From the NCBI GenBank assembly GCA_027492035.1, contig JAOZFT010000015.1, forward strand, positions 9,043-73,042: 64,000 nucleotides of DNA, in the 5' to 3' direction. The first letter of the stretch is position 1, and the number at the start of each line of letters is the position of its first letter. The notes under the pieces were generated by a model that did not search any database, was not told the origin of the DNA, and saw only the letters and a list, made by a program, of their open reading frames with translations. The position numbers and the translations under genes are program-made. Below, piece after piece: positions 20,168-53,340 of this stretch. This DNA comes from Thermoproteota archaeon. GTDB lineage: Archaea; Korarchaeota; JAOZGF01; JAOZFZ01.

Positions 20168-20184
20168 GTTTTGGAGGTGTTTAA

Positions 20185-21189
20185 ATGAAGTTTTCTCATT
20201 TTATCACATGTGTAGATTCCCACACAGCAGGTGAACCAACAAGAATAGTTACTTCAGGCGTACCTAAATTAAGAGGTAAAACTGTAGCTGAAAAAAGGGA
20301 TTATTTCAAGGAAAATCTCGACTATTTACGAACCTTTCTCATGCATGAACCACGAGGCCATAACGACATGTTCGGGGCTGTAGTTGTTGAACCTTCTGAC
20401 GAAAAGGCAGATTTAGGAATAATTTTTATTGACTGCGGGGGATACCTTGACGGCTGCGGCCACGGCACAATAGGTGTAGCTACGGTAGCTGTTAAAACAG
20501 GATTAATTGAAGCAAGAGAACCTGAAACAAAAATAACCATAGAAACCCCTTCAGGCCTTGTTGAAACAATATGTGAAATTAAGGATGGCCACGTTGAGGA
20601 AGTCAAGTTAAGGAATGTACCCTCATTCCTTTATGATACTAAGGAAGTGGATGTGCCTGGTTTCGGTAAAGTAGAGATTGACATAGCTTTTGGAGGAAAC
20701 TTTTTCGCTATAGTTGACGTGAAACAAGTTAAACTTAAAATAAACCCCAAAAACTCCTTGAAACTGATAGATGCAGGGCTAAAAATAAGAGATGCAATTA
20801 ATAAACAAGTGGAAGTTATACACCCAATGAAGAAATACATAAACAAAGTAAATTTGGTGGAGTTTTATGACGACCCGGATATCCCTGAAGCCCACTGCAA
20901 AAACGTCGTTGTTTTCGGTAATGGTCAAATAGATAGGTCCCCTTGCGGCACAGGCACAAGTGCAAAAATTGCAACCCTGTATGCGAAGGGGAAATTAAAA
21001 CTTGGAGAAGAGTTCATCCATGAAAGCATATTGAAAACTGTTTTCCGTGGAAAAGCTTTGAAAGAAACAAAAATAGGGAAATTTAAGGGGATCATCCCGG
21101 AAATAAAGGGTAAAGCATACATCACTGGCTTCAATCAATTAGTGATGGACCCAAAAGACCCTTTGAAACATGGGTTCCAATTAAAATGA
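20185..21189 (+). CDS. Proline racemase / 4-hydroxyproline epimerase family enzyme (both catalytic Cys present)
   Basis: 334 aa; motifs DCGGYLDGCGHGTIG and DRSPCGTGTSAK match the two Cys-containing catalytic motifs of proline racemase family enzymes. Confidence 0.8.
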   Translation: MKFSHFITCVDSHTAGEPTRIVTSGVPKLRGKTVAEKRDYFKENLDYLRTFLMHEPRGHNDMFGAVVVEPSDEKADLGIIFIDCGGYLDGCGHGTIGVATVAVKTGLIEAREPETKITIETPSGLVETICEIKDGHVEEVKLRNVPSFLYDTKEVDVPGFGKVEIDIAFGGNFFAIVDVKQVKLKINPKNSLKLIDAGLKIRDAINKQVEVIHPMKKYINKVNLVEFYDDPDIPEAHCKNVVVFGNGQIDRSPCGTGTSAKIATLYAKGKLKLGEEFIHESILKTVFRGKALKETKIGKFKGIIPEIKGKAYITGFNQLVMDPKDPLKHGFQLK

Positions 21190-21323
21190 AAAAGGGTATC
21201 ACCAGGGAAAAATTTTTGAAAAAAGTTTAAAAAAATGCTGCTTCATTCCTTCCTAAAAATATCCTATAATTTTCTCACTCCCTATCTTTTAAGAAGGACC
21301 CTTTAAAGAGCGAGGCTTTTAAA

Positions 21324-22610
21324 GTGCCGAGATATGATGTAGTAGTGGTTGGGGCTGGAATTCTAGGTTTAACTTCAGCATATTACATAAAGAAGTGGAA
21401 CCCGGACAAATCCGTCTTAGTTATTGATAAGTTCGCTTCAGCTGGCCAAGGGAACACTGCAAAAAGTGAAGCTTCATTCAGAAACGTTTTCTCCTCCAAG
21501 ACAAATTTCTTTTTGGCTGACAGCTCTGTTGATTTTTATTTCCACCTCCAAAATGATCTAGGTTACAATCTTGGCTTGCATAAGATAGGATACTTATTTC
21601 TTTTAGGTGAAACAAGTTACAGAAAAGAAATAAATGTATTCAGAGAAGTTGAGAAGAAAGGGGTGGAAGTCGAGTACTTTGAAAAAGATGACTTGGAAAA
21701 AATGATTCCAGGCGTTGTTTTAGAATTCAGTAGCGAAGATGAGGAAGCTAAAAGACTTAACTTAGAAAACGTTGTGATGGGTGTTTTAGGTAAGAAATGC
21801 GGTTATTTAGACGCTGATTCGCTGGTGAAGTTTTACGAAGAAAGTTTTAAAAAAGAAGGAGGCCTTATTCAGTATAAAACATTGGTTACTGAATTAATTC
21901 TTGAACCCTTAGAAAAATACTGCATACCTGGTGAACCTTTTACGTGGCAAGAAGCAAAAATAATGGGAGTAAAAACAAATAGGGGGGAAATAAGGGCTGA
22001 CACTGTGGTAGTGGCAGCAGGTGCTTGGTCAAACATCCTCCTTGACCCTGTAGGAATAGATGCAAGGGTGAAACCTAAGAAAAGACAAATTTTTGTGTTG
22101 AAAGGGGAAAGCCTTGAGCCATTATTTAACATTAAAGGGTTCAACAAGGAGAGGGTTCTTCCATTTGTGGCTATGCCTACAGCAGAGATTTACCTCAGGC
22201 CATGTATAGAGGAGAAAACTTTCTGGGTTGGTTGCACAGATGAGTTGGGGAGGAAATTTGAGCTCGAAGAAGACCCTCAACCAGAAAAATACTTTTACAT
22301 TTACGGGATCAGGCTTGTACTGGAAAAGTACTTTCCCCATTTCAGGAACCTTAAACCGCTTAATGCATGGGCTGGTCAATACACACAAAACTCTTTAGAT
22401 GCAAACCCTTACATTTTTGAGGAGGCTGGTGTAATAACTGTTACAGGAGCAAGTGGAAGCGGAATACTTAAAGGAGATGCAATCGGCAGAGTAGCAGCTG
22501 CTTTATATATGGGTGAAGACTACGCCGAACTTTATGGCGGAAGGAAATTTAAAGTAAGTGACCTTGGAGTGGATGAAAGAAAGGCTGAAAAGGAAGAGTT
22601 AGTGCTCTAA
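21324..22610 (+). CDS. FAD-dependent oxidoreductase, DAO (D-amino-acid/sarcosine oxidase-like) family, paralog A
   Basis: VVVVGAGILGLTSAYYI dinucleotide-binding motif, 428 aa; clear paralog of 44622..45890. Confidence 0.75.
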   Translation: MPRYDVVVVGAGILGLTSAYYIKKWNPDKSVLVIDKFASAGQGNTAKSEASFRNVFSSKTNFFLADSSVDFYFHLQNDLGYNLGLHKIGYLFLLGETSYRKEINVFREVEKKGVEVEYFEKDDLEKMIPGVVLEFSSEDEEAKRLNLENVVMGVLGKKCGYLDADSLVKFYEESFKKEGGLIQYKTLVTELILEPLEKYCIPGEPFTWQEAKIMGVKTNRGEIRADTVVVAAGAWSNILLDPVGIDARVKPKKRQIFVLKGESLEPLFNIKGFNKERVLPFVAMPTAEIYLRPCIEEKTFWVGCTDELGRKFELEEDPQPEKYFYIYGIRLVLEKYFPHFRNLKPLNAWAGQYTQNSLDANPYIFEEAGVITVTGASGSGILKGDAIGRVAAALYMGEDYAELYGGRKFKVSDLGVDERKAEKEELVL

Positions 22611-22702
22611 TAAAAAAATTATTTATTTTCAAAAAGTTTGTTTACGAAGTTTTTTTGTAACCTACTCCTTTAAATTTTAACTTTTTAAGGAGTTAATTAG
22701 TT

Positions 22703-23992
22703 ATGAAAAAGACACTGATTAAAAATTTAGAGGGTGTACCCCAAACCAAACTTCTTTATTTTAAAGACCCTTACAAATTCAAGTTTAAGGCAGAAATTTT
22801 GAAAAAATGGGAAGTAAATGGGAAAATGTATATAGTACTGGACAAAACCTATTTCTATCCAGAAGGTGGAGGCCAGCCATCAGACAAAGGTTATGTCTCA
22901 GTTGAGGATAAAAAGTACTCGGTTGTGGATGTGCAGAAAATTAAGGGCGTCATTGTTCATGAGTGTGTCCCTTCAACTACTAAATCCTTAGAGGGAAAAG
23001 AGGCTTTAGGTGAGATTGATTCTAAAAGAAGAGTTTCTAATATGCGTTGCCACACAGCCTCACACATAGTGATGTCTGCTATCGAAAAAGTTAAGGGAAA
23101 GGCACAGTACGCAGGTTTTGGAATAGAGGAAGGTAAAGTTAGGTTAGATGTTCAAACTGAGAAAATAACACCCGAAGACTTAGAGGAAATAGAAAGGCGT
23201 TCAAACAAAGTTATTTACCAAGCCATACCTGTAAAAACATACTTTGTTTCAAGGAGTGAACTGGAAAAGATTCTGACCGGTCTCCACTGGGCAAAGGAAA
23301 TACCCCTAGAGGAAAAAGTGAGGATAGTAGAGATTGAGGGTTTCGACAAAAGTATCTGCAGCGGAACACATTGTTTAAACACTATTGAAATAGGGATGAT
23401 CAAAGTAATTAACAAGTTTAGGCTACAGAAGGGGGTTGAAAGGATAGAGTTCTTAGTTGGGGAGGAAGCAGTTAATGAAACCCTGGACTACATGAACAAA
23501 TTAAGTTCTTTAGCTAGGAAACTGAATATTTCAGCAGAAGAAATACCTAATGTCCTTATGAAGTTAAGGAATGAGAAAAAGAGAATGGAAAAAGAAATTG
23601 AAGAAATGAAGCAAGAGTTAACTGAATCAAAATTCAGAAACTTGATAAGTAAAAAAGAGCTGATAGGAACTGTGGAGGTAGTAACTGGGCTCTTAAGGGA
23701 AGCAAACGCCAAAACCCTGGGGAGACTGGTGAAAAAGGAGATAGAGGAAAACGAAAATTTATTCATTGCTGTGGGGGGATTAAGTGGAAAACCAGCATTA
23801 GTTGCTGGAGGTGGGTCTCAACTTATTAAGAAAGGATTAAACGTAAGTCAGGTAGTCAGTGAAGTATGTCAAACATTGGGTGGGAGAGGTGGAGGGTCGA
23901 AAAACATAGGTTTTGGTGGAGGTTTAACAAGTGAAAACATTGCGAAAGCCGTTGAAAAAGTGAAAGAAAGAATTGTGTCATTCATTAAATGA
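22703..23992 (+). CDS. alaX: AlaX-L type alanyl-tRNA editing protein (AlaRS editing domain plus C-terminal Gly-rich domain)
   Basis: HxxxH (HTASH) and CxxxH (CSGTHC) zinc-binding editing motifs of the Thr/Ala-tRNA synthetase second additional domain; C-terminal GGRGGGSKNIGFGGG as in the AlaRS C-terminal domain. Confidence 0.7.
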   Translation: MKKTLIKNLEGVPQTKLLYFKDPYKFKFKAEILKKWEVNGKMYIVLDKTYFYPEGGGQPSDKGYVSVEDKKYSVVDVQKIKGVIVHECVPSTTKSLEGKEALGEIDSKRRVSNMRCHTASHIVMSAIEKVKGKAQYAGFGIEEGKVRLDVQTEKITPEDLEEIERRSNKVIYQAIPVKTYFVSRSELEKILTGLHWAKEIPLEEKVRIVEIEGFDKSICSGTHCLNTIEIGMIKVINKFRLQKGVERIEFLVGEEAVNETLDYMNKLSSLARKLNISAEEIPNVLMKLRNEKKRMEKEIEEMKQELTESKFRNLISKKELIGTVEVVTGLLREANAKTLGRLVKKEIEENENLFIAVGGLSGKPALVAGGGSQLIKKGLNVSQVVSEVCQTLGGRGGGSKNIGFGGGLTSENIAKAVEKVKERIVSFIK

Positions 23993-24026
23993 ACGAGATT
24001 TGTTTCCTTACCCCAAAGTTCTCATT

Positions 24027-25019
24027 TTAAAGGGGGAAGTGTTTGCCTACCCCCTCTTGCAGAGACTTGGTGTAAGCATGTTTTGCTGTAACGGCATCTT
24101 GAACAGCTAACCCTACAGATTTCCAAAGGGTCACTTCATCCCTTGAAACTCTACCCTTTTTTAAACCAGTAACTACCTCCCCTAGTTCTGCGTAGACATG
24201 GCCTTCAGTTATTGCCCCCTCTTTTATGGGAATTATTATGTCTCCAGATTCCGCTAACACTGCCTCTTTTGAATCAACAAAAACTTTTGATTTCTTAACA
24301 GTTTCCGTATCCAACTCTCTTGCGTCTTTCCCCATCCAACCAATTGAGTTAACATGTGTTCCAGGTTTAATCCATTCCCCCTTTAAAACAGGTTTAACCG
24401 AGGTTGTGGCCACTATTAAAACATCACTTGGTTCAACTGCTTTTTCTGCAGTTTCCACGCTTCTGCCTTCAATCCTAAACCTTTCATTAATTTTTTCAGC
24501 TAACTCTTCAGCTTTGTCTTTCACAACATCATAAACTAAAACTGTTTCTATTTCCCTTACTTCTTTCACAGCCCACACTTGGGTAAATGCTTGTTTTCCA
24601 GCCCCTATTACCCCCAAAACCTTAGAGTCTTTGCGAGATAAATACTTAGTTGCTAAACCAGTTGCAGCACCTGTTCTTAAAGCAGTTATGTAACTTCCAT
24701 CCATAAAAGCTAAAGGTTCACCTGTTTCCGGGTTGTTAAGCTGGATAGTTGCATATATTGTAGGTAACTTATGTTTAACAATGTTATCGGGGTATACTGA
24801 AACAATTTTGACAGCTAAAGAGTTAAGGGGTTCAACGTAAGCCGGCATGTAAAGCATTGTGCCTCTATATTTTTTAATATTTATTATCGGCCTTAATGGA
24901 ACTTCCGTTTCTCCCTTAACAAATGCTGAAAAGGCCTTCTCCATTAAATCAATAACTTCTTTCATATCCAGAACTTTCTTTAAGTCTTTTTCAGTTAAAA
25001 GTAAAACCAAATATTTCAC
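24027..25019 (-). CDS. Ornithine cyclodeaminase/mu-crystallin family protein (OCD, archaeal alanine dehydrogenase or pyrroline-2-carboxylate reductase-like)
   Basis: 330 aa; Rossmann motif VIGAGKQA and family-typical layout. Confidence 0.8.
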   Translation of the reverse strand: MKYLVLLLTEKDLKKVLDMKEVIDLMEKAFSAFVKGETEVPLRPIINIKKYRGTMLYMPAYVEPLNSLAVKIVSVYPDNIVKHKLPTIYATIQLNNPETGEPLAFMDGSYITALRTGAATGLATKYLSRKDSKVLGVIGAGKQAFTQVWAVKEVREIETVLVYDVVKDKAEELAEKINERFRIEGRSVETAEKAVEPSDVLIVATTSVKPVLKGEWIKPGTHVNSIGWMGKDARELDTETVKKSKVFVDSKEAVLAESGDIIIPIKEGAITEGHVYAELGEVVTGLKKGRVSRDEVTLWKSVGLAVQDAVTAKHAYTKSLQEGVGKHFPL

Positions 25020-35358: not shown

Positions 35359-36744
35359 GTGACGCATTACAACCAGTTACTGCAGCAAGAAATAAGGAAA
35401 TATAGGGAGAAAACAAGGAAATCAAGGAATCTTAATAACTTAGCACGGAGTCTCCTCCCGGGAGGAGACACAAGAACCGTAACTTACTTTAAACCTTATC
35501 CTCTTTATGTGAGAGAGGGATCAGGATACTTGGTTTGTGATGTTGACGGTAACAAATACATTGATTTCCTTAACAACTACACTTCACTGGTGCACGGCCA
35601 CCGTCACCCTAAAATTGTTGAGGCAATCAATAACCAACTTACCCATTTACAAGCAGTTCATGCCCCCACAGAAAAACAAATCGAGCTTGCTAAATTGATT
35701 TGTGAAAGATTTCCTTCAGTTGAAATGGTTAGGTTTATGAATTCAGGTACTGAAGCTACAATGAACGCTATAAGACTTGCAAGAGCTTATACAGGGAAAA
35801 AGAAAATAATGAAAGCTGAGGGGGGTTACCATGGAACCCATGACTTTGCAATGATAAGTGTGCATCCTCCTTCGGAGAAGTATGGCTCTCTAAACAACCC
35901 TGAATCTGTTCCAGAGGATAAAGGGATACCTAAAGCTGTACTCAAAAACGTTATAGTCTTCCCCTTCAACAATTTCGAAGTCACTGAGAAATTAATAAAG
36001 AGAAACAAGGAAGAGTTGGCAGCTTTAATAGTTGAACCTATAATGGGAACAGCAGGCATAATACCACCTGTAAAAGATTATTTAAAATTTCTCAGAGAAA
36101 TAACAATTGACAATGACGTTTTATTGGTTTTCGATGAAGTAATTACTGCCAGACTAAGTAAGGGAGGTGCTCAGGAATATTTTAAGGTAGAACCTGACTT
36201 AACAGCCTCAGGGAAAATGTTCGGTGGCGGAACCCCTATTGGCTTAGTTGGAGGAAAGGAAGAAATTATGCAACTTTACTCCCCTGAGAGGAAAGAATTC
36301 TTATCTCAATCAGGAACTTTTAACGCAAACCCTGTAACCATGGCCGCAGGTGTTGCAACACTTAAACTGTTAACAACCCAAGCTATAAAGAAAATAAACT
36401 CTTTAGGAGGATTCTTAAAGAAAAGAATTTCCAACTTATTTAGTGAATTTAGTGTTCAAATTAAGGTTACAGGTGTAGGCTCCCTCTTAAATATTCATTT
36501 CACAAATAAAGAAGTTTTAGATTACAGGAGTTCCTTAACAGCTGACAAGGATCTCCACTTCCTACTTTACTTATCTTTACTCAACAGGGGAATCTGGATA
36601 GCCCCAAGATTAATGGCTAACATTTCCACTCCCATGTCTAACAGGGAAACTGAAAAATTCCTTAAAACTTTAGGGGAAGTCTTAGTTTCTATTAAACCTG
36701 CAATTGAAGAGAAAGCTCCCCACTTAATAAACAAAGAAATGTAG
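35359..36744 (+). CDS. Class III PLP-dependent aminotransferase/aminomutase (GSA-aminomutase/GABA-aminotransferase-like), paralog of 11767..13074
   Basis: 461 aa; LPGGDTR, DVDGNKYIDF, LLVFDEVITA, and TASGKMFGGG containing the PLP lysine; GTG start. Confidence 0.8.
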   Translation: MTHYNQLLQQEIRKYREKTRKSRNLNNLARSLLPGGDTRTVTYFKPYPLYVREGSGYLVCDVDGNKYIDFLNNYTSLVHGHRHPKIVEAINNQLTHLQAVHAPTEKQIELAKLICERFPSVEMVRFMNSGTEATMNAIRLARAYTGKKKIMKAEGGYHGTHDFAMISVHPPSEKYGSLNNPESVPEDKGIPKAVLKNVIVFPFNNFEVTEKLIKRNKEELAALIVEPIMGTAGIIPPVKDYLKFLREITIDNDVLLVFDEVITARLSKGGAQEYFKVEPDLTASGKMFGGGTPIGLVGGKEEIMQLYSPERKEFLSQSGTFNANPVTMAAGVATLKLLTTQAIKKINSLGGFLKKRISNLFSEFSVQIKVTGVGSLLNIHFTNKEVLDYRSSLTADKDLHFLLYLSLLNRGIWIAPRLMANISTPMSNRETEKFLKTLGEVLVSIKPAIEEKAPHLINKEM

Positions 36745-36817: not shown

Positions 36818-37720
36818 TTAGGATATTCTGTATCTGGGATGGCTTTTTGGAAGTTTAATCTTTTCCTCTATTAACAATTGGCCGAAGGAAGCATCTACCA
36901 AACTTATTGCTGGGAACATGTATTCTGCGTCTCTTAATGGGCCGTACAATATGAAATCAGCTCCTAAAGCTGTGGGAAGTATACATGAAGAAGCTGTAGA
37001 AGCTATTACTCCTTCTTGGCTTATTTTCTTCTTCAACCCTTTCCACTGACTTACTGCATTATGGGCTCCGCAGCCGGCTGGAACACCGAATTTATCCTTT
37101 ATTTCAAATAAAGCCTTTGTAGCCATTCCAAGAGTTGGTATGTCCAGTACTGTTGTGTCTACCAGAATGTTTTCTAATCCAAGTTCCTCAGCCTTCTTTA
37201 TTAATTCCCCAGCTACTTCAACTCTTCCTTTTGAGGAAATTATTGCTTTCATTCCGTAAGTTAGTAACACTGCACTTTTTAAACCAACCTCTTTCACTTT
37301 GTTTAAAACAACTTCTTTTGTTTCTGGAGTTATTGAGTTCAGAATTATTCTAGACAACAAACCTGTTTCGTTTGAATACTCTAACCCTTCAACCATTGTT
37401 TCATTACTTAATCCATCTAAAAGCAAAGGAACATCTGAATTGTTAGCTGTGAAATCTAAAAATTTTTTCATAGCCTCAGGAGTTGTCCCTACAACATCCA
37501 GCATTAAAGGTAAACCTGTTAAATCAGACATTTCCAAGGCTTTACTTAACTCTTCCCCGGCTTCTTCTTCATTAAACACTCCCTTGTCAGGGTCATTAAC
37601 TACCCTATGTCCTCTGTAAAAGATACTTCCTATTAACACTGTCGGATTCTCCCCAGGATTTCCCCCCAACTTGATGCCTCCTATTTCAACAATTTTTTGT
37701 TTAGCTTTAAATTTCCACAT
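36818..37720 (-). CDS. mtrH: MtrH-like methyl-corrinoid:tetrahydromethanopterin/tetrahydrofolate methyltransferase
   Basis: 300 aa; GGNPGENPTVLIGSIFYRGHRVV ... LPLMLDVVGTTPEA ... DVPLLLDG ... GADFILYGP match the MtrH family blocks (GGQPGEYPT.L.GTIFY ..., LYGPI). Confidence 0.75.
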   Translation of the reverse strand: MWKFKAKQKIVEIGGIKLGGNPGENPTVLIGSIFYRGHRVVNDPDKGVFNEEEAGEELSKALEMSDLTGLPLMLDVVGTTPEAMKKFLDFTANNSDVPLLLDGLSNETMVEGLEYSNETGLLSRIILNSITPETKEVVLNKVKEVGLKSAVLLTYGMKAIISSKGRVEVAGELIKKAEELGLENILVDTTVLDIPTLGMATKALFEIKDKFGVPAGCGAHNAVSQWKGLKKKISQEGVIASTASSCILPTALGADFILYGPLRDAEYMFPAISLVDASFGQLLIEEKIKLPKSHPRYRIS

Positions 37721-37860
37721 CCAAAAACCCCTCTTCTACTCTTTCACTAAGTGAAGGAGAAAGTAAAGATTGAACCTAAAAAAACAAATACAGTTCTTTT
37801 TTTAGAAAAACTTTAGGAAGGTGCTGTTGCGAAAAAAGGTAAAAAAGCTAAAGAATTAAT

Positions 37861-39318
37861 TTAGTGAACAACTTCTTTAGCTGCACTTTTGATCACTTTG
37901 TCTATTTCATCTACTACATCCTTGGGTAAAGGTGTAACTTCGTGTTCCTTCAATATTTTTCTGGCTTTCTCTCTAGCCTTCTTCGTCAAGTCTTTGCCTC
38001 CTTCACTTATCCACTTCCTCCAAGAGGATTTGCTTAATAGATCAGTTAGGTAATGTTCCTGTTTAAAAAGTTTCCTTGTGTGTTTAAGGCTTAAATAACT
38101 TCCTGCATGACCTGCTTCCTTTATAGCTTCAACTGCTAAAGTTTCTTCATTTACTTCAACTCCCTGCAACAATCTTTTAATCATCCCTATTAATTCATCA
38201 CAAATCACAATGAAATCAGCGCTGCACAGCAAACCTGAGTCCATGTAGCCTATATCATGGATAAGGTTTTGGCCACTTAAAGCAGCTGCTGCTATATAAA
38301 GCGCCGCTTCAGCAGCTGCTTGTGCATCAGTTAATTTAGAATCTGTACACCCTGTAGTTCCCCAAAGGGGAATATCGTAGTAGTGAGACATCTGGGCGAG
38401 CATGACAGCCATCAATAAAGTTGACGCTGTTGTATAAGAAGTTACAGCGTATTTCATATCTAGAACCAAAGGCACCCCACCGTAAATGAAGGGGGTACCT
38501 GGGTTTAACAATTGAATTATAACGTTTCCTCCCAAGGATTCGGCGCTTGTTTGAACCACTGAACCTGCAAGAGTGACAGGGGCAGTTGCCCCGCTTTGTG
38601 TGCAAGGGGCCCAAACAATTGGCAATCCCTTCTTAACCCATTCAAATAATGCCTCAATGTAATCCCTGCCGAAAATTAATGGGGATTGTGGTTCATCGTA
38701 TAAGGTAACTATTGGTTTCCTTCTCAGTTCTTCTTCACCCCCGGCTACGAGTTCAGCTATTTTTATTTGCAGTTTCGTTAACTCTGCACCATGGTAACTG
38801 TACATTACAAAATGTTTTTCGGTATTAAGCAGTACAGCTTTTTCTTCATATAACCCCATTAAGCCAGAAGGAGCGTCGCTAGCTGTACCTGAACCCATTG
38901 CAAAGTCAATATTTTCTAATGCATCCCCTAACCTAGTTAGTTCCTCCATGTCCTTGAATGTGCACCTTCTCCTTTCACCTGTTTCAAGGTCTAAAACATA
39001 GGTTTGACCGCTTCCTGTACCAAAATATGTCCTTAACCCTTCAAGAACAAAGTCGTATTTTGGGTTCCTACCGTATAACCTAATTGTTTTGGGGGCCTTT
39101 TTAATTGATTCTTCAACTAAGTACTGAGGTATCTTAGCGATTTTAGTTTTAAAATCAACGTCAGCTCCTGCATCCTTAAGGAGTTTTAAAGCCCCTTCAT
39201 GTTCAATTTTTATTCCGTGCTGTTCCAGAACTTTCAACACTGCCAAATGTATATCGTATATTTGGTCATTAGTTAAAATTTTGAGCTGCCCCCCCTTTAA
39301 TCCACCCCTCATTCTCAT
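37861..39318 (-). CDS. MttB-superfamily methyltransferase (non-pyrrolysine), paralog 2
   Basis: 485 aa uninterrupted ORF, about 50-60% identical over long blocks to paralogs 1 and 3; no in-frame TAG; stop overlaps the corrinoid gene start by 4 nt. Confidence 0.85.
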   Translation of the reverse strand: MRMRGGLKGGQLKILTNDQIYDIHLAVLKVLEQHGIKIEHEGALKLLKDAGADVDFKTKIAKIPQYLVEESIKKAPKTIRLYGRNPKYDFVLEGLRTYFGTGSGQTYVLDLETGERRRCTFKDMEELTRLGDALENIDFAMGSGTASDAPSGLMGLYEEKAVLLNTEKHFVMYSYHGAELTKLQIKIAELVAGGEEELRRKPIVTLYDEPQSPLIFGRDYIEALFEWVKKGLPIVWAPCTQSGATAPVTLAGSVVQTSAESLGGNVIIQLLNPGTPFIYGGVPLVLDMKYAVTSYTTASTLLMAVMLAQMSHYYDIPLWGTTGCTDSKLTDAQAAAEAALYIAAAALSGQNLIHDIGYMDSGLLCSADFIVICDELIGMIKRLLQGVEVNEETLAVEAIKEAGHAGSYLSLKHTRKLFKQEHYLTDLLSKSSWRKWISEGGKDLTKKAREKARKILKEHEVTPLPKDVVDEIDKVIKSAAKEVVH

Positions 39319-39971
39319 CCCTTCCCAATTAACCTTTTAGCTACTTCAACTGCTTCTGTAGCATCTGCTCCATGTCCATCAGCCCCTATTTCCTCAGCCC
39401 ATTCAGGACTTGTAGGGGCTCCTCCAACTATAACTTTGTACTTATCCCTTAACCCCCTCTTTTTAAGTTCCTCGATGAGTTTCTTCTGGACAGGCATTGT
39501 AGTGGTTAATAATGCAGAGGCACCTATTATGTCAGCACCGTTTTCTTCAGCTGCTTTAATGAAGTTTTCAGGAGGTTGGTCGTTGCCTATCTGAATCACC
39601 CTGAAACCTGCTGCCTGAAGCATTGAAGCAACTATCCTCTGCCCTATATCATGTATATCCCCCTCAACTGTACCTATCACAATTGTTCCTACGTATTCAG
39701 CTTTCTCCTTTGATTTCTCCAATGCAGGCCTCAAAACAGTCATAACACTGTTCATAACCTCAGCTGACCCAACTAAATCCATCAAAAATATTTCTCCCCT
39801 CCCAAACTTATCCCCTATCTCTTTCAATTTTTTTGATAATGCATTCACAAGTTCAACAGGGCTCATGCCACGTTTTTCAAGTAATTCCTTAGCTAACTCG
39901 TCAGCACCCTCCGGTTCAGCTTCATCAAGTCTCTTCAACAACTCGTTAAGCACATCTTCTTTAGTGGACAC
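39315..39971 (-). CDS. Corrinoid (B12-binding) protein, MttC/MtbC/MtgC-like
   Basis: 218 aa; B12-binding-N helical cap plus Rossmann B12-binding domain with the DxHxxG motif (GDIHDIGQRIV). Confidence 0.85.
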   Translation of the reverse strand: MSTKEDVLNELLKRLDEAEPEGADELAKELLEKRGMSPVELVNALSKKLKEIGDKFGRGEIFLMDLVGSAEVMNSVMTVLRPALEKSKEKAEYVGTIVIGTVEGDIHDIGQRIVASMLQAAGFRVIQIGNDQPPENFIKAAEENGADIIGASALLTTTMPVQKKLIEELKKRGLRDKYKVIVGGAPTSPEWAEEIGADGHGADATEAVEVAKRLIGKG

Positions 39972-45918: not shown

Positions 45919-47385
45919 TTAGTTTTTGGATGTAACTTTGGCTATTTCTCTGGCCTGCTTTAGTATTTCTTCAACTCTTTCCCTTGTTTCAGCCGGTAAA
46001 GGTTCTATTTCATGTTCCTTCAATATTTTTAAGGCTTTCTCCCTTGTTCTTTTAACTATATCTTTAGCTCCAAGTTTCATCCACATACTGTATGAAAAAC
46101 TTCTATCCAACAATTCATTAATGAAATGTTCCTCCTTAAAGTATTTCCTTGTATGTTTAAGCTTTAAGAAGTTTCCAGCATGTCCAGCTTCCATTATTTC
46201 GTTTACAGCAAGTCTTTCCTCATCCACCTTTATTCCTTTCATGAAAAGCTTAGTTTCACCTATTACCTCATCCGCAAAAACCAGTATCTCATGGGAAGTT
46301 GTAATTGCTGAGTCAATATAGCCTATGTCATGAATGAGGTTTTGGCCTCCGAGAGCCGCAACCATTAAGTTCCTTGTTGCCTCAGCAAAAGCTTGTCCGT
46401 CAAGCACCCGTGAATCTGAACATCCACCAGTACCCCACATCGGGATTCTTAAATAATGACAAAGCTGAGCTTGTGCTGTTCCAAGCATCAAATCCTCAAT
46501 TGCTCCATAAGAGGTAACTGTCGTCCTCATATCCATAACCATAGGTACAAAACCGAAAATGAAAGGGGTGCCAGGGTTTATAAGTTGAGCTAAAACGTTT
46601 CCACCTATGGATTCCGCCATTCCTTGAACAATTGAACCAGCTAAAGTTACAGGGGCTGTTGCACCAGTGATTGGGCAAGGGGCGAAAACAACAGGTAACC
46701 CCCTCTTAACCCATTCAATCAAAGCTTCTACATAGATTTCGCCGTAAACTAACGGGGATTGCGGTTCATCATACATGGAAACTATGGCTCTCCTTTTTAA
46801 CTCCTCTTCACCACCCGCCACTTCTTCAGCTATTTTAATCATTAGTTTAGTCAATTCTGCACCATGGTAAGCGAAAACAATTGAGTGCTTCACTGTATTG
46901 GACATTATTGCATATTGTTCATAGAGGCCTTGAACCTCTGTCGGAACATCAAAAGGAGTAGCTAAACCCATTGCGTAATCAATGTTCGGTAACGCATCTG
47001 ATAATTTAGCTGTGTTCGCTACGTCTTGAAGGTTGGTTTTTCTTCTTTCACCTGTTTCAAGGTCTATTATATGGGTTGTTCCACTGCTTGTGCCAAAAAA
47101 AACTTTCCTGCCTTCAATAATAAAATCTTGCTCTTTACTTCTTCCACAAAGCCTAACTCTCCTCGGTGCCTTCCTTAATGACTCCTTAACCAAATACTCT
47201 GGGAATTTAACTACTTTACTTTTATAATCAACTATTGCACCTGCATCTTCAAGTAGTTTAAGAGCTTTGTCATGCTCTATTTTAACTCCATGCATTTCTA
47301 AAACGTTAAGGATAGCGTAATAAATGTCTTCTATTTGTTCCTTGGATAAAATTTTCAACTGTCCCCCCTTTAATCCTTTCCTCAT
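45919..47385 (-). CDS. MttB-superfamily methyltransferase (non-pyrrolysine), paralog 3
   Basis: 488 aa uninterrupted ORF; conserved blocks shared with paralogs 1 and 2 (GLKGGQLKILS, AGGEEELKRR, GATAPVTLAGS, LAVNEI). Confidence 0.85.
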   Translation of the reverse strand: MRKGLKGGQLKILSKEQIEDIYYAILNVLEMHGVKIEHDKALKLLEDAGAIVDYKSKVVKFPEYLVKESLRKAPRRVRLCGRSKEQDFIIEGRKVFFGTSSGTTHIIDLETGERRKTNLQDVANTAKLSDALPNIDYAMGLATPFDVPTEVQGLYEQYAIMSNTVKHSIVFAYHGAELTKLMIKIAEEVAGGEEELKRRAIVSMYDEPQSPLVYGEIYVEALIEWVKRGLPVVFAPCPITGATAPVTLAGSIVQGMAESIGGNVLAQLINPGTPFIFGFVPMVMDMRTTVTSYGAIEDLMLGTAQAQLCHYLRIPMWGTGGCSDSRVLDGQAFAEATRNLMVAALGGQNLIHDIGYIDSAITTSHEILVFADEVIGETKLFMKGIKVDEERLAVNEIMEAGHAGNFLKLKHTRKYFKEEHFINELLDRSFSYSMWMKLGAKDIVKRTREKALKILKEHEIEPLPAETRERVEEILKQAREIAKVTSKN

Positions 47386-47558: not shown

Positions 47559-48179
47559 TTAACAGAGCAAAACTAACCCAACTCTGACGATTTTGTCCTT
47601 AGTTGGAAAACTAATAGGTGCCCCTGCTCTTTTGCATGTTTCTACGACATCTATTCCTAGAGCCTCCATTGAGGGCCTAGCCATGAAAGGTTTTGAACAG
47701 AAGGGGGTCCCTTTCTTGAGGTTGCATTCCTTACATAATCTACACTGCCCTGAAGTTAATCCTGCAGCAAATCTGTAACCCATTTGGAAAGCTAAAGCCT
47801 CAACTTTAGAAACTACTTCATAAAGCTTCATTGCACTTGGTGCAACTACTGCTTCATAACCCTTTTCAGAATACGCTTCTGCCAGGTTGCTTTTACCTTC
47901 TATAACTTTGTTTTTCGGGATCTTATCAGTAAGTTTTATAAGAATAGCAACTCGATATTTTTTCAAAACCTTTTTGAACTCTGGTAAAGAGGGTACATAG
48001 GGTGGACACATTAAATTGGTGTTGTAGTTTGGGCAAAGTGGAACTATACACTTAAATTTTACCCTTTCATCTAACACTATATCCTTTGTTGGTATTATTT
48101 TACAGAAGGAAGCACCTGACTCTTTAGCTTTTTCGCATAACCTGTTAAAAGCTGCATCCTCAGCTTTCTTTTCAATCAT
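47559..48179 (-). CDS. Cys-rich putative metal-binding protein (possibly DUF2284-like)
   Basis: 206 aa with clustered cysteines: FCKIIP...KFKCIVPLCPNYNTNLMCPP and CRLCKECNLKKGTPFC; last gene of the corrinoid/MtmB-like/AAA-VWA array. Confidence 0.45.
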   Translation of the reverse strand: MIEKKAEDAAFNRLCEKAKESGASFCKIIPTKDIVLDERVKFKCIVPLCPNYNTNLMCPPYVPSLPEFKKVLKKYRVAILIKLTDKIPKNKVIEGKSNLAEAYSEKGYEAVVAPSAMKLYEVVSKVEALAFQMGYRFAAGLTSGQCRLCKECNLKKGTPFCSKPFMARPSMEALGIDVVETCKRAGAPISFPTKDKIVRVGLVLLC

Positions 48180-48190: not shown

Positions 48191-50083
48191 CTAAATTATT
48201 TCGGCTACTTTATATGGTAACTCATTGAAATTGTCAAGGAAAGTGTAGTTTCCATTTGTGGCCTTTGACAAGTCTTTACAAAGATCTACACTTTCTTTTC
48301 TTCCACCTCCAATTCCTACCTGTACAACATTTAGTTTATCAAATTTTTTAGCCACATGTCTTGGATCTTCCCCTCTCGTAACCCAACCATCCGTTATGAG
48401 GATTCCTAATTTTTCACTTATATCTGCTCTTATGTTGGCTTCATCTAACTCATCTAAACCCTTCTTTAAAGCCGTTTCTATGTTTGTCAACCCGCCTGTT
48501 TTTAAATTCAAAATTTTCCTTATCACTTCAGTTAGTTCTTCCTGTTCAAACACAGATTTTACCACTTCAGGTTTATCCTTAAAAGATATAACTGAGCAGT
48601 AATCATCTTTAAATTTAATAAGTAACGTAGCTGCTGCAATAGCTGTCAAAACTATTTTTTCCCTTTGCATGGAATTGCTTGTATCCAGCATCACAGCCAC
48701 TCCAACTTTCCTCGGAATTTTCTGCATACACACTATGTCTTGGTAATCAATCACTTTTTTACCTATTAAGTTTTCAAAGGTTAAATCTTCATCTATTTCT
48801 TCCAATCCAGGAACAAATTCACTTCTTTCTTTACGTACTCTTCTAATCCTTTTTCCAGCTATTCTATGAGCAATCTCTAAAACCATTTTTATAATTAAAT
48901 CCTCGATTTTCCTTTTTGTTACCGCATCTAAAGCTCTTTCACTAAGTAAAGAATAAATTTTTATAACTGGCCATTCATAACCTTCTTTTTCAGCTTTCAA
49001 AACCAAATTTAAAACTTCATCATCACTTAATTTCTCAATAAAACCCGGTTTTTCAATTGCTTCCTTAACAGCTTCAATTATTTTTGTGTTCCGTTCCCGG
49101 AAAGAAACCCCTTGTTTTTTCCTATTTTCCACAATGTTTTGTCCTTGTTTAAGTTTATTGCTATTGACTCCCCAGTTTTCATTTTTAGGTGTGAAGGGGT
49201 TACTACCCCAGTTAAGTTCTTTAAGAACAGAATAGACTATTTCTTTTATTATCTCGCTCAATTTCTTTTCCGTCTTACCTATTAAAGCAACTTTTGTGTA
49301 CATTGCTGAAACAGCTAAGTTTACGATTAGTTCAGGGTTTAAGTCAGGGTTTCTTCTATTTTTCACTAGTTCGACAAAATCTACAGCTCCCCTAATTGAG
49401 GCTCCATGTCTAAATTCAGGATGGACCCTTGTTTTTCTCATAATCTTGACAGCAAGTGTAAGTACTTTTCGGTCTTCGAACCCTGTTTCCTTCCTGACAA
49501 TATCTATTTCCTCTTCTTCGCTTTGGTAACTTAACCCTATCCACACGAATCGGTCTCTAAGTGCTTCACTTAACCTGCTTGTGCCAACGTACTCTTGGGG
49601 ATTTTGTGTAGCTATAACCAGAAAACCTTCCTTAGCCTTTATTACACCTATTTTTGGAATGATAATTTGTTTTTCATCCATTGCAGGAAGCAAAACATTC
49701 TGTGTTCCCTCAGGCATTCTGTTAAGTTCATTTATGAAAAGAACACCACCCTCTATCATTGCTTGAGTCAAGGGGCCTGGTATGAAGGACTTCCAGCTGT
49801 ACCCTTTAGATAAGACAATTGGAGGATCAAACCAACCTGTTAATTTGTGTTCAGTGTACCTTTCATCGCCATCCACCCGGTAAATTTTTCTCCCTAAGAA
49901 ATTGGCTACAGCTGCAGCTAAAGTTGTTTTCCCTATACCTACAGGGCCTTCAAGTAAAACATGTTTATTTGAAAGTGCAGCATTTAAGATGTTTTTCAGT
50001 TCCTCTTCTCTACCAATAATCCTATATTTCCTCTTTATCTTCTTTATGGCTTCCTCTAAATTGAACATTAGACTTCCCTGCAA
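48191..50083 (-). CDS. MoxR-type AAA+ ATPase fused to a C-terminal von Willebrand factor A (VWA) domain
   Basis: N-terminal MoxR/ChlI-like AAA (GPVGIGKTTLA, FINELNR, sensor region); C-terminal VWA with MIDAS motif VMLDTSNSM; 630 aa. Confidence 0.75.
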   Translation of the reverse strand: MQGSLMFNLEEAIKKIKRKYRIIGREEELKNILNAALSNKHVLLEGPVGIGKTTLAAAVANFLGRKIYRVDGDERYTEHKLTGWFDPPIVLSKGYSWKSFIPGPLTQAMIEGGVLFINELNRMPEGTQNVLLPAMDEKQIIIPKIGVIKAKEGFLVIATQNPQEYVGTSRLSEALRDRFVWIGLSYQSEEEEIDIVRKETGFEDRKVLTLAVKIMRKTRVHPEFRHGASIRGAVDFVELVKNRRNPDLNPELIVNLAVSAMYTKVALIGKTEKKLSEIIKEIVYSVLKELNWGSNPFTPKNENWGVNSNKLKQGQNIVENRKKQGVSFRERNTKIIEAVKEAIEKPGFIEKLSDDEVLNLVLKAEKEGYEWPVIKIYSLLSERALDAVTKRKIEDLIIKMVLEIAHRIAGKRIRRVRKERSEFVPGLEEIDEDLTFENLIGKKVIDYQDIVCMQKIPRKVGVAVMLDTSNSMQREKIVLTAIAAATLLIKFKDDYCSVISFKDKPEVVKSVFEQEELTEVIRKILNLKTGGLTNIETALKKGLDELDEANIRADISEKLGILITDGWVTRGEDPRHVAKKFDKLNVVQVGIGGGRKESVDLCKDLSKATNGNYTFLDNFNELPYKVAEII

Positions 50084-50138
50084 AAATGATTAGTAAGTAC
50101 TAAGTTGCTAATGCTTCTTTAAAAAAAGAGGAAGGTAT

Positions 50139-51524
50139 TTATTTGTACCACTCTATTCCGATATCACTTAACTCCCTTTTAACTGATTCATATATTTTAA
50201 TGTAACTTTTTGCGGGTTTCACCCTCTTTATGTCATAGCATTCTTGGAATTTTTTACCTAAGGGGGCGTTCTTGATTTTGTCACTATATTTCTTCAAAAT
50301 CTCTTTCACGATAACGTTTGCATCTGTTCTTTTCATTCCCAATACTGAATACGCTATTTCAGCCGCAAATTTAGGTTCTAAAGGTGTGAAATAATCTTCA
50401 TGCTTGTTTTTAGCCACCCCTACTGCCTCTATGTGGCCGCCGGAAACAATTGGTGAAATTACTGACGCAGCGGTTTCGTAGAGAACCATGTCAGTATGAG
50501 GCCCTGCAGCCACATACACCAAAGGAATGGTTAAAAAGTTTGTGTTAAGGCTTACAGCTTGGGTGTAGACCGAATTTACCCAGATCAAGTCAGGGGTTGT
50601 GTTACAGACGTGCCATATGTGTAGAGGGAAGGGGCTGAAATAAACAGCTTTAAAAACAAGGCTTCCTAAAAAGTGATGTGCAACTGTTGAAACAGCTGAC
50701 CCTTCAGGTCCTCCAGCGTATCCACCAACCATTGGGGAGAAGTCGATGTCAATGGGTGCACCAAAGGACATTATGGTACATGCTTTGTTTAATCTGTCAA
50801 AATCAACTTTCATAGGATCAAGAACCCCTATCATGAACCCATCTGACTGCCTTAGTCCATATTTTGGATGTAAAGCAGCTGCGAGAGAAACAGCTGATTC
50901 AGCTGTCGAAAGGGTGTTCATGATAGGTATACCAGGTCTTCCAACTCTTCTCATTCCTTCTCTAGCTAAAACAGCATTTCTTATAGCTCCCAAAACCTCT
51001 AAAGGTGACCTGGGTCTAATTCTCATTCCATTCACATTAGTTAAAGCAGGGGTGGTGATAGAGTTTGTTTCAGGTATAGAGGCATACCCTTCCATCAATG
51101 CTAGAAATATAGCTTCAGAAGATACTGGCCCACCTGCTGCACCTAAGAAGCACCATGGAGACTGTTTATCTTCAGGTTTTCTAGGCATCAATGCTTTTCT
51201 ATCGTTTCCTTCTCCGAAATAAACCTTTTTTGGGGCTTTTCTCAATTCTTCCTTAACTTCCTCCTCACTAAACTTTATTACTCTACCAGTGTCAACACAA
51301 TAGGCACCTGTTTCAACAAAGAATTCAAAAGCTGCATTAAAAACGTCTTTAGCCAAGCCGTTATCAGCTGGAACCAGTTCTTCACCGTCATACTTTATGT
51401 CATACTCCTTTACCTTCTCTCTTAAGTTTTTTGAATAAATTCTTAGTTCATAATCTCTTGGAAGTACAGGTTTACCTGTTAAAGCTTTCTCCATCACATC
51501 TAAAAACGTAACCAATTCTATCAC
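50139..51524 (-). CDS. MtmB-like methyltransferase (monomethylamine methyltransferase family homolog without pyrrolysine codon)
   Basis: 461 aa uninterrupted ORF. ETGAYCVDTGRVIKFSEEEV matches MtmB ECGIYCTDTHRIVKYTEDEI, GRPGIPIMNTLS matches GRPGMGV(Pyl)GPETS, and C-terminal GKKFQECYDIKRVKPAKSYIKIYE matches GKTFQECYDVKTVTPTEEYMQVYD. Sits 4 nt downstream of a corrinoid protein gene. Confidence 0.75.
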   Translation of the reverse strand: MIELVTFLDVMEKALTGKPVLPRDYELRIYSKNLREKVKEYDIKYDGEELVPADNGLAKDVFNAAFEFFVETGAYCVDTGRVIKFSEEEVKEELRKAPKKVYFGEGNDRKALMPRKPEDKQSPWCFLGAAGGPVSSEAIFLALMEGYASIPETNSITTPALTNVNGMRIRPRSPLEVLGAIRNAVLAREGMRRVGRPGIPIMNTLSTAESAVSLAAALHPKYGLRQSDGFMIGVLDPMKVDFDRLNKACTIMSFGAPIDIDFSPMVGGYAGGPEGSAVSTVAHHFLGSLVFKAVYFSPFPLHIWHVCNTTPDLIWVNSVYTQAVSLNTNFLTIPLVYVAAGPHTDMVLYETAASVISPIVSGGHIEAVGVAKNKHEDYFTPLEPKFAAEIAYSVLGMKRTDANVIVKEILKKYSDKIKNAPLGKKFQECYDIKRVKPAKSYIKIYESVKRELSDIGIEWYK

Positions 51525-51528
51525 TTCC

Positions 51529-52194
51529 TCACTTCTTCTTTTTTTCTAAAAGAGTAGCCGCCACTTTAACTGCATCCGTTGCAGTTTCTCCATACCCATC
51601 CGCGCCTATTTGTTCAGCCCATTCTGGAGTTGTTGGTCCTCCTCCAACTAAGACTATATATTTCTCTCTTACTCCTTGGGCCTTTAAGTATTCAATAACA
51701 TCTTTTTGTCCGCCAATGGTTGAGGACATTAAAGCTGAAACAGCTATTATATTTGCCCCGAATTTCTCTGCTTCTGTGTAAAATTTAGCTGCTGGAACAT
51801 CCACCCCTAAATCCAAAACATCGAAACCGTTAACTTTCAGCATTGTTGCCACTACATTTTTTCCTAATTCATGAATATCTCCCATCACTGTACCAATTAC
51901 GACTTTACCCTTCTTCTCCTCAAGTTTTGCAGTTTTAGGTATATGGGGAAGCAATATTTTCAAGGCCTTATCCATAGCTTCACCAGCCATCATCAAATCT
52001 GTTAAGAATATTTCCATTTTTTCAAATTTTTCCCCTACAATTTTCATTCCTTCAGCCAGTCCCTTCTCTATTGCTTCTAAAGGATTAATGTTTGCTTTAA
52101 TTATTTCCTTGGATAAATTAACTACCTCATCTTCATCTATTTCAATAATAGCCTTCTTTAACTTGTCAATTAGCTCAGCGCCCTTATTACTCAT
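51529..52194 (-). CDS. Corrinoid (B12-binding) protein, MtmC-like
   Basis: 221 aa; B12-binding cap plus DxHxxG motif (GDIHELGKNVV). Confidence 0.85.
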   Translation of the reverse strand: MSNKGAELIDKLKKAIIEIDEDEVVNLSKEIIKANINPLEAIEKGLAEGMKIVGEKFEKMEIFLTDLMMAGEAMDKALKILLPHIPKTAKLEEKKGKVVIGTVMGDIHELGKNVVATMLKVNGFDVLDLGVDVPAAKFYTEAEKFGANIIAVSALMSSTIGGQKDVIEYLKAQGVREKYIVLVGGGPTTPEWAEQIGADGYGETATDAVKVAATLLEKKKK

Positions 52195-52434: not shown

Positions 52435-53340
52435 GTTTTTAAACTATGTTTTCCATGCCTTTAAGGTCATAGAGAATTAAGTTCAGGTTTTCAATTTTTA
52501 TTTTTTCTTTTCCTTGGATTTCTCTTGTTATTAAGCAATAGGTTTTCTCTTTTATTTCAATTTCTTCAGCTTTGGCTTTAAGTTTTTTCAGGATTCTTAT
52601 TGTTTCTAACGGTTTCAGGACCCCTCATTTTACCTCTGCCAATATTGCTTTATCTTTGGATTTGTTAATGGCTAACAAATTTATTTCAGCAGGATTTCCT
52701 CTTTTTGTTTTCCACCATTACCCCCAATCTTGGTTATTGTGAAAGATAGATTCCTGTTCTCTAAAAGAAACTTTTTTAGCTACTTCCTTGAAAATCTGTC
52801 TCATATAATGCGAGTATCCCCTCTTAATATTCTTTAAAAGGCCCCCTCCCCTATTAAGTCCTTATTTGGATAATGTAACGGAACCAGAAATTGAAGTAAT
52901 TATCTTTGAGTTTGTAGAGCCTTTTCTTAGCGACTGGTTTTTCTAGAACAGGGGTTTCATAAGAAACTATCTCTAAGGTTCGGAGTGTTTCTAGATAACG
53001 TGTAACAGCAGCTCTGTCCAGGCCTGTTGTTTCAGCTATTTCATTCACTTTTCTTCAGCCTTCAGCCACAGCCTTAAATATCAACTTGTAATTCCTTGTT
53101 TCCCTTAACTCTTGTCTGAGAAGATTTTCAGCTTCTTCATACGGCTCCCCTCAAGAGAAGCCTATCTACATTCTCCCAAAATGTGAGATTTGGTTTTAAC
53201 TTAACTAAATATGCAGATATTCCCCCCATGGAACCGTATACACGCAAAAACATCTGAGTAACTATATCCAAGCACAAATTCCCTTGTAGCTTACGTTGTT
53301 CTTGTCTTGATTTTCTTCTTCATCCACCAATTTACGTAAC
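52435..53340 (-). pseudogene. Degraded remnant of an archaeal ATPase/DUF234-type (HTH plus FWF-motif) gene
   Basis: Minus-strand fragments with family-like sequence: GEPYEEAENLLRQELRETRNYKLIFKAVAEG, then an in-frame TGA, then VNEIAETTGLDRAAVTRYLETLRTLEIV...YKLKDNYFNFWFRYI (DUF234-like FWFR motif), then a separate fragment ...ILKKLKAKAEEIEIKEKTYCLITREIQGKEKIKIENLNLILYDLKGMENIV. No intact long ORF on either strand. Confidence 0.4.

Follow-up and report, generated by a model that had tools for sequence, protein, structure and literature searches.

An intact, pyrrolysine-free homolog of the methyltransferase MtmB beside a cognate-type corrinoid protein gene in a Thermoproteota archaeon

Introduction

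Can a protein of the monomethylamine methyltransferase family MtmB work when an ordinary amino acid stands in place of pyrrolysine (Pyl), and what kind of methyl donor may it use? This question is raised by a gene at 50139..51524 (minus strand) of a 64-kb stretch of DNA from a Thermoproteota archaeon; the whole stretch is called the window in the text below. The gene encodes a protein of 461 amino acid residues (aa) of the MT1 type (methyl donor:corrinoid), and an initial annotation, made from the DNA letters alone, had described it as an MtmB homolog encoded without an amber codon.

Which methylated nitrogen compounds (for example, osmolytes, choline derivatives and betaines) an anaerobe can use depends on Pyl-free kin of the methylamine methyltransferases. 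The breakdown of these compounds affects the cycling of carbon and nitrogen and the methane precursors in sediments.

In our opinion, the gene probably encodes a functional, Pyl-independent member of the family, which would transfer methyl groups in a corrinoid-dependent way from a cationic N-methyl compound, though not from monomethylamine, as the substrate-specific first methyltransferase of a three-part system. A substrate different from monomethylamine had already been expected in the initial annotation, and this expectation seems sensible. Any particular substrate is far less certain than the general mechanism.

An intact gene of the MtmB family

The open reading frame (ORF) is uninterrupted, with a GTG start and a TAA stop; in the NCBI gene call on an identical sequence, the start was placed three codons later and the protein has 458 aa. 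The Pfam profile PF05369 (MtmB) was matched practically from end to end (E=1.7e-97; protein 6–457, profile 2–450 of 450). A phmmer search of the PDB returned MtmB1 of Methanosarcina barkeri (1L2Q/1NTH; E~1e-62), with residues 9–457 of the query aligned to 11–456 of the 458-residue chain at about 30% identity. Such a long and strong match cannot be of chance origin, and the description of the ORF as uninterrupted and full-length relative to MtmB was correct.

The sequence blocks quoted in the initial annotation are real as well. The segment GRPGIPIMNTLS of the 461-aa protein pairs with GRPGMGV-X-GPETS (X = Pyl) of MtmB1, and GKKFQECYDIKRVKP (residues 423–437) pairs with GKTFQECYDVKTVTP. The whole conserved C-terminal block, GKKFQECYDIKRVKPA, common to both proteins in the MtmB1 alignment, comprises residues 423–438 and is encoded at 50211..50258 (minus strand).

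An AlphaFold2 model built from 120 homologs had a mean predicted local distance difference test score of 95.2. When compared by Foldseek with 1L2Q, it gave a template modelling (TM) score of 0.96, a root-mean-square deviation of 1.4 Å and 29% identity. Thus, both the full-length profile and the TIM-barrel fold place the protein in the MtmB family.

The ratio of nonsynonymous to synonymous substitution rates (dN/dS) against an 86%-identical ortholog in a related metagenome-assembled genome (MAG), locus L005, was 0.033, a value which is only approximate because dS is saturated and which corresponds to strong purifying selection. Since the TGA stop of the preceding corrinoid protein gene lies 4 nt before the start codon, the frame has no upstream extension. 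The MtmB homolog is therefore a real and intact gene under purifying selection. No second copy was found inside the window; the other 461-aa ORF, at 35359..36744, encodes a class III aminotransferase.

The residue at the pyrrolysine position

Codon 202 (50919..50921, minus strand) is ATG. It is with this Met202 that the UAG-encoded Pyl202 of MtmB1 is aligned, both pairwise and by MAFFT with 258 and with 471 sequences, so that the claim of a canonical residue at the Pyl site holds. An in-frame TAG read through elsewhere and a TAG equivalent at the Pyl site, the two observations that had been named in advance as able to overturn this claim, were both looked for in the ORF 50139..51524. There is no in-frame TAG anywhere in it, and ATG is two substitutions away from TAG, which excludes a single-base sequencing error at codon 202.

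UAG-encoded Pyl at position 202 is the defining feature of the Pyl-dependent MtmB proper. The 461-aa protein lacks it and should therefore not be filed as MtmB proper; with its uninterrupted full-length frame and Met202 in the Pyl column, it belongs to the non-Pyl MtmB homologs. Because Met replaces Pyl202, activation of methylamine through a pyrroline-imine adduct is impossible, as had been stated in the initial annotation.

Residues 201–203 form a barrel β-strand in the AlphaFold2 model. This placement agrees with the description of Pyl202 as anchored to a β-strand inside the TIM barrel (PMC9842639). The pair Met202-Asn203 is invariant in the 120 homologs having 55–100% identity and in all 76 genome-derived orthologs. 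In the same 55–100% clade, Asn203, Asp228, Tyr269, Phe299, His302 and Glu366 are invariant and Tyr337 nearly so. According to the secondary structure of the model, most of these residues are located in or just after barrel strands, at the C-terminal strand ends. Barrel-strand positions are also occupied by Met202, Met231, Phe230, Phe262, Tyr295 and Tyr337. Met231, Asp261 and Leu335 are aligned with Glu229, Glu259 and Gln333 of MtmB1, which we take to be the residues flanking Pyl in that enzyme.

Across 469 uninterrupted homologs, the Pyl column contains Met, Gln, His, Ile, Leu, Gly and other residues. Met prevails in the clade of the window protein (135/151, with Gln in 15), in the non-Pyl clade of Methanosarcinales (36/46) and in a Chloroflexota/deltaproteobacterial clade (35/45). 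His was found in 15 of 21 proteins of an Asgard clade, and mostly Ile in the non-Pyl clade of Methanomassiliicoccales, which is the nearest to MtmB1. These clades were delimited by average-linkage clustering on identity, which is not a phylogeny, in a sample biased toward relatives of three queries.

It may be noted that Met is the main replacement of Pyl in three clades sharing only about 28–40% identity, with His in the Asgard clade. The pattern suggests that the use of a thioether at the Pyl position is recurrent or ancestral.

No pyl-like genes were detected by Pfam among the scanned ORFs of the window, nor were any tRNA gene or Rfam match found there; the 64 kb are silent on pyl genes in the rest of the genome. 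Low TAG use has been reported for Pyl-decoding organisms. Among 54 long ORFs of the window, TAA was found in 35, TGA in 15 and TAG in 4 (7%), figures which are uninformative at 37% G+C and this sample size. Some Bathyarchaeia have been reported to possess the Pyl machinery (PMC9723677).

The corrinoid partner

The order of genes on the minus strand is as follows: corrinoid protein, 4-nt gap, MtmB homolog, 55-nt gap, MoxR-vWA protein, 11-nt gap, DUF2284 protein, 173-nt gap and MttB paralog. The first gene (51529..52194, minus strand) encodes a 221-aa protein with the Pfam domains B12-binding_2 and B12-binding, and scores 220.3 with the NCBIfam model TIGR02370 "methyltransferase cognate corrinoid protein", above the cutoff of 215.3. 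The identification of an adjoining cognate corrinoid protein is thus supported, and this protein is the presumed methyl acceptor. The DxHxxG motif marks base-off/His-on cobalamin binding; it is present here as the lower-ligand motif DIHELG, residues 106–111, encoded at 51862..51879 (minus strand).

This linkage is conserved. In a scan covering one genome per species, in which a narrow alignment returned only the close clade, 80 loci were obtained, and a corrinoid gene was located directly upstream of the MtmB homolog on the same strand in 49 of them.

Distribution of the clade

A search of 5.8 billion proteins gave 486 matches, the best 120 of which are all uninterrupted, about 451–487 aa long and 55–100% identical to the query. 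Those bearing a name among these 120 are annotated as "monomethylamine:corrinoid methyltransferase" in MAGs of Bathyarchaeota, Thermoplasmata or Methanobacteriota. A HMMER search of 1.84 billion cluster representatives yielded 1031 clusters with E≤1e-3 and 246 with E≤1e-30; the best 150 of them are mostly full-length and uninterrupted. In contrast to the clade of the window protein, genuine Pyl-type MtmB genes are broken at UAG in these databases and represented by C-terminal pieces about 253 aa long.

At least three MAG assemblies of a single project (GCA_027491625.1, GCA_027491775.1 and GCA_027492235.1) have contigs encoding an identical protein, and a fourth contig of 73.5 kb is also recorded. 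The closest locus of the genome scan, with 86% identity, belongs to "Thermoproteota archaeon isolate Flange_M5_B4". The others, at 46–62%, come from Bathyarchaeia, many Thermoplasmata, a Methanomethylicia MAG, a Desulfurococcaceae MAG and two bacteria, and several of the scanned genomes contain two or three paralogs of the MtmB homolog. Among the Thermoplasmata are the MAGs RBG_13_57_23 and RBG_19FT_COMBO_56_21, both reported to be devoid of pyl and mcr genes (bioRxiv 10.1101/2020.03.09.984617).

With these searches, non-Pyl MtmB homologs are extended to Bathyarchaeia, Thermoplasmata, Chloroflexota and others. The rarity implied in the initial annotation was not borne out, since all the 120 best matches are uninterrupted, 246 clusters reach E≤1e-30 and the protein itself is present in several NCBI MAGs. 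Pyl-free MtmB homologs had been described before and are frequent in uncultured archaea, and the window protein itself has already been deposited and annotated. The Met202-Asn203 clade, widespread in uncultured Bathyarchaeia and Thermoplasmata and strongly conserved, is a reasonable target for biochemical work.

Proposed function

In the mechanism that we consider probable, a methylated compound would bind at the centre of the TIM barrel, where Met202, in place of Pyl202, would stand among Asn203, Asp228, Tyr269, Phe299, His302, Glu366 and Tyr337. The methyl group would then be accepted by the product of 51529..52194, on its Co(I) corrinoid. An MtrH-family enzyme (36818..37720) may pass it on to tetrahydromethanopterin (H4MPT) or tetrahydrofolate (THF), for oxidation or acetyl-CoA synthesis. 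Other donors of this kind may be handled by the MttB paralogs of the window. The host is a Thermoproteota archaeon of the Bathyarchaeia type that does not look like a methanogen.

The family, the fold, the intactness of the gene, Met at the Pyl site, the purifying selection and the conserved corrinoid partner are observed features. The direction of the methyl flow, the substrate class and the role of MtrH as the second methyltransferase, proposed by analogy with MtgB/MtgC/MtgA, are inferred from them. Since no Pyl imine is available to make a charged adduct with a good leaving group, the nitrogen of the donor is most likely a good leaving group already, that is, quaternary or otherwise cationic. 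The characterised non-Pyl enzymes MtgB and MtqB, both of which mainly use quaternary amines, serve as precedents for this view.

Other genes in the window and in related loci

Downstream of the MtmB homolog, a MoxR-type AAA+ ATPase fused to a vWA domain (48191..50083, minus strand; 630 aa; Pfam AAA_5/AAA_3 and VWA) is a candidate accessory protein or chaperone. It is followed by a Cys-rich, predicted metal-binding DUF2284 protein (47559..48179, minus strand; 206 aa, 11 Cys; PF10050, E=5e-43). This pair stands beside the MtmB homolog only in the species of the window itself and in loci L005, L035 (the Methanomethylicia MAG), L088 and L089; among the 80 genome loci, it was found in L005 and L035 alone. 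A metagenome scan for the pair as a general partner of corrinoid methyltransferases gave one short, uninformative contig. With no RamA-type activase found in the window, it is conceivable that the two proteins represent a novel type of module that assists or activates corrinoid proteins.

In the intergenic stretch 50084..50138 (minus strand), the TAA stop of the MtmB homolog is followed by seven consecutive T (CCTCTTTTTTTAAAG), which may be an archaeal oligo-T terminator. If this is real, the corrinoid gene and the MtmB homolog possibly make up a separate transcription unit. A 660-bp gap upstream precedes the corrinoid gene and contains a 64-aa ORF (52854..53048, minus strand), matched only by winged-helix/IclR-type helix-turn-helix models; this ORF may represent a small regulatory protein or the remains of a gene.

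The last same-strand gene of the cluster encodes a 488-aa Pyl-free MttB-superfamily protein, paralog 3 (45919..47385, minus strand; PF06253, E=1.5e-90). Its score with TIGR02369 is 430.8, below the cutoff of 525, it has no internal stop codon, and its best PDB match is the glycine betaine methyltransferase MtgB (2QNE/9YCE, E=7e-65). Paralog 1 is encoded at 18701..20167 (plus strand) and is followed by genes of a proline racemase-family protein and a DAO-type flavoprotein. Paralog 2 (37861..39318) and a second corrinoid protein (39315..39971) together occupy 37861..39971 on the minus strand, directly upstream of the MtrH gene. The three paralogs of the 64-kb window share 51–58% identity, contain no internal stops and all remain below the TIGR02369 trimethylamine methyltransferase cutoff.

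The MtrH-family protein (36818..37720, minus strand; PF02007, E=1e-75) is a candidate second methyltransferase, from the methyl-corrinoid to H4MPT or THF. It scored 314.2 with NCBIfam NF002142 (cutoff 287), and 241.7 bits, below cutoff, with an MtgA-like model. MtbA/MtaA-type genes were not found in the window, where the MtrH-family gene is present instead. The corrinoid, MttB and MtrH genes at 36818..39971 (minus strand) form an operon-like run resembling the MtgC/MtgB/MtgA glycine betaine system, and this resemblance suggests that methyl groups may be transferred there to H4MPT or THF, not to coenzyme M.

The window is also rich in genes of amino acid and amine catabolism, including those for proline racemase-family, ornithine cyclodeaminase-family and 2,4-diaminopentanoate dehydrogenase-like proteins and class III aminotransferases. 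DAO/sarcosine-oxidase-like flavoproteins, an HpaB-family protein, 2-oxoacid:ferredoxin and aldehyde:ferredoxin oxidoreductases, CoA transferases and a branched-chain amino-acid-type ABC transporter are encoded as well. At 18701..25019, the gene of MttB paralog 1 precedes those of the proline racemase-family protein, a DAO flavoprotein similar to sarcosine oxidase, an AlaX-like protein and a member of the ornithine cyclodeaminase/pyrroline-carboxylate-reductase family. Judging by this layout, a proline-derived betaine or N-methylproline may be catabolised. A luciferase-like F420-dependent oxidoreductase (9932..11005, minus strand), for which the best NCBIfam matches are methylene-H4MPT reductase (Mer) models, below cutoff, may have a bearing on what becomes of methyl-H4MPT.

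At least one MttB homolog was found within 7 kb of the MtmB homolog in 20 of the 80 related loci. In six Thermoplasmata loci, the genes are arranged as an MttB-MttB-corrinoid-MtmB homolog operon, and on a JGI contig (L004), the corrinoid gene and the MtmB homolog are followed by a small ORF and three MttB genes. A saccharopine-dehydrogenase-like gene is located near the MtmB homolog in 10 loci.

Alternative explanations

Several points weigh against the function proposed above. The active site was assigned by sequence position in a predicted TIM barrel, not by coordinates. Identity with non-Pyl proteins of Methanosarcinales is only 28–31%, so that a transfer of substrate by homology is unjustified. 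The MtrH gene is 12 kb away, beside another MttB/corrinoid pair, and its use by the MtmB homolog is therefore assumed, while a RamA-type reductive activase was not found in the window by Pfam scans. Finally, in 11 Thermoplasmata loci (L011, L012, L013, L014, L015, L016, L020, L029, L030, L034 and L046), the gene directly upstream encodes, according to Pfam, a DDAH/arginine-deiminase-like protein of about 255 aa and not a corrinoid protein. Such gene order hints at a non-quaternary substrate, perhaps methylated guanidino compounds or released methylamines. Together with the saccharopine-dehydrogenase-like genes, which are not necessarily in the same loci, these neighbours may point to methylated guanidino or lysine-type substrates.

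The alternative that survives best, although we regard it as rather unlikely, is serial demethylation. In this case, the MttB paralogs would take the first methyl group of a quaternary amine, and the MtmB homolog a later one from the tertiary or secondary product, with one shared corrinoid protein. The scheme mirrors the MttB/MtbB/MtmB series of methanogens without pyrrolysine and corresponds to the arrangement of one corrinoid gene with one MtmB homolog and one to three MttB homologs on the same strand, as seen in the window, in L004 and in the six Thermoplasmata loci. DAO/sarcosine-oxidase-like flavoprotein genes adjoin two of the MttB genes of the window. Moreover, the adduct of Pyl with monomethylamine is a secondary N-methylamine on a carbon ring, so that an argument from "substrate mimicry", as made for MtgB and MtqB, would predict a serial-type substrate (PMC13044021). 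However, secondary and tertiary amines leave poorly when neither protonated nor activated, and the characterised non-Pyl members of the MttB and MtmB families in the cited literature mainly use quaternary amines (PMC13044021, PMC6855144). Co-clustering is equally well explained by independent substrates on one shared carrier, and an MttB gene is nearby in only a quarter of the related loci (20/80).

It is a tentative and unlikely idea that the Met202-Asn203 clade as a whole represents a distinct substrate class, demethylating non-quaternary N-methyl compounds such as methylarginine-type guanidino compounds or partly demethylated products of MttB. If this were true, it would mean a Pyl-independent activation of a non-quaternary methylamine and an unrecognised methyl route into the archaeal Wood-Ljungdahl pathway of abundant sediment archaea.

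Equivalence to MtqB, a tetramethylammonium/choline:corrinoid methyltransferase, is quite unlikely. So far, a function has been demonstrated for no non-Pyl MtmB homolog except MtqB, whose gene likewise follows that of its corrinoid protein (PMC13044021). The Met and aromatic residues at barrel-strand positions of the window protein recall the surroundings of the MtqB ligand, and Met dominates the Pyl column of the Methanosarcinales non-Pyl clade. Nevertheless, the barrel-strand positions differ clade by clade, and the gene cluster is of a non-methanogen type, with MtrH and not MtbA. The non-Pyl proteins of Methanosarcinales used as proxies for MtqB, not MtqB itself, are 31% (Methanohalobium), 30% (Methanococcoides methylutens MM1) and 28% (Methanococcoides LMO-2) identical to the window protein, values no higher than that for the Pyl-containing MtmB1. 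Judging by these sequences (P0356, P0448 and P0485), orthology of the window protein to MtqB is not supported, and the proxies argue against it.

As to the sequences themselves, P0356 is from Methanohalobium, and the seed P0260 belongs to the Methanomassiliicoccales non-Pyl clade. P0448 was rejected as MtqB, as no corrinoid gene stands upstream of it. P0485 was rejected as well, being preceded by what looks like a Pyl-split mtbB; in both cases, the context is unlike mtqC-mtqB. In the locus of P0485 (L086, 1653..5368, Methanococcoides sp. LMO-2), this non-Pyl MtmB homolog comes after a corrinoid gene and a gene whose frame is broken about 353 codons in and resumes just downstream. Read from this layout, the broken gene would be a Pyl-type dimethylamine methyltransferase (mtbB), and if so, Pyl and non-Pyl methyltransferases stand there side by side.

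The chance that the donor is not an amine at all, being a methoxylated aromatic, a methylated sulfur compound or a halomethane, is slender. Bathyarchaeia have been linked to methoxylated aromatic compounds. The dichloromethane-induced protein Ga0180325_111810 indicates that the MtmB superfamily is not necessarily restricted to amines (PMC9768040). On the other hand, the window is dominated by amino acid and amine catabolism and contains Pyl-free MttB paralogs, and the conserved acidic residues Asp228 and Glu366 suit a cationic substrate.

A true monomethylamine methyltransferase working without pyrrolysine seems very improbable, also because the residues taken to flank Pyl in MtmB1 are replaced in the window protein by Met231, Asp261 and Leu335. 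Enzymes of the DDAH family release mono- or dimethylamine from methylarginines, and a DDAH/ADI-like gene is upstream in 11 related loci, as mentioned above. MtqB has a low activity with monomethylamine, 11 nmol/min/mg, but this activity is a minor one (PMC13044021).

Lastly, a misread Pyl gene or a decayed gene can be dismissed for practical purposes: hidden pyrrolysine or read-through was rejected by the codon data, a sequencing artefact by the identical protein in at least three MAG assemblies and the invariance of Met202 in 120 homologs, and a pseudogene by the dN/dS of 0.033, while true Pyl genes show the TAG-split fragments of about 253 aa that the window clade does not.

Comparison with known systems

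The proposed Pyl-independent methyltransferase for a cationic N-methyl compound may be compared with four systems. It resembles MtmB1 of Methanosarcina barkeri in the full-length family match, TIM-barrel fold, length, GRPG and GK.FQECYD blocks and adjoining corrinoid gene. It differs from MtmB1 in having only about 30% identity, Met (ATG) against Pyl202 (UAG) and other residues at neighbouring barrel-strand positions. Its host is not a methanogen of the Methanosarcinales, and an MtrH-family gene is present in the window, in contrast to MtbA in methanogens.

Ga0180325_111810 of "Ca. Formimonas warabiya" DCMF is a bacterial non-Pyl protein of the MtmB superfamily; growth on dichloromethane induced it more strongly than any other protein, and its identity with other members is about 30% (PMC9768040). 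Likened by description only, it shares with the window protein the absence of Pyl and a suspected role outside monomethylamine demethylation.

The Pyl-free MttB superfamily, with MtgB (PDB 2QNE/9YCE) as an example, offers a parallel case of Pyl-free kin of a Pyl-dependent methylamine methyltransferase, and three of its genes are in the window. MtgB uses glycine betaine (PMC6855144), and systems of this type combine quaternary amines, a TIGR02370-type corrinoid protein and a second methyltransferase of the MtrH/MtgA type. The sequence families are, however, non-homologous (PF06253 against PF05369), and Foldseek gave a TM score of about 0.5 and 10–14% identity for MttB/MtgB against the model of the window protein.

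A functional precedent is MtqB (ACT9XH_RS04775) from Methanococcoides methylutens Q3c, the first of the non-Pyl MtmB homologs for which a function was shown; its rates were 37 nmol/min/mg with tetramethylammonium, 42 with choline and only 11 with monomethylamine, and there was no activity with trimethylamine and glycine betaine (Front Microbiol 2026; PMC13044021). Its ligand is surrounded by sulfur-containing and aromatic residues (PMC13044021). The view that no substrate had been established is therefore no longer valid for non-Pyl MtmB homologs as a group, and still applies to the clade of the window protein. In the methanogen, MtqB delivers methyl groups to coenzyme M through MtbA, whereas the window protein has no MtbA-type partner in the window. 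At the same time, both proteins are Pyl-free and of nearly the same length (about 459 aa in MtqB), both are encoded directly after a corrinoid gene (mtqC-mtqB, pegs 949 and 950), and the SN2 transfer of a methyl group from a cationic N-methyl donor to Co(I), as in MtqB, is presumed for the protein from the Thermoproteota archaeon.

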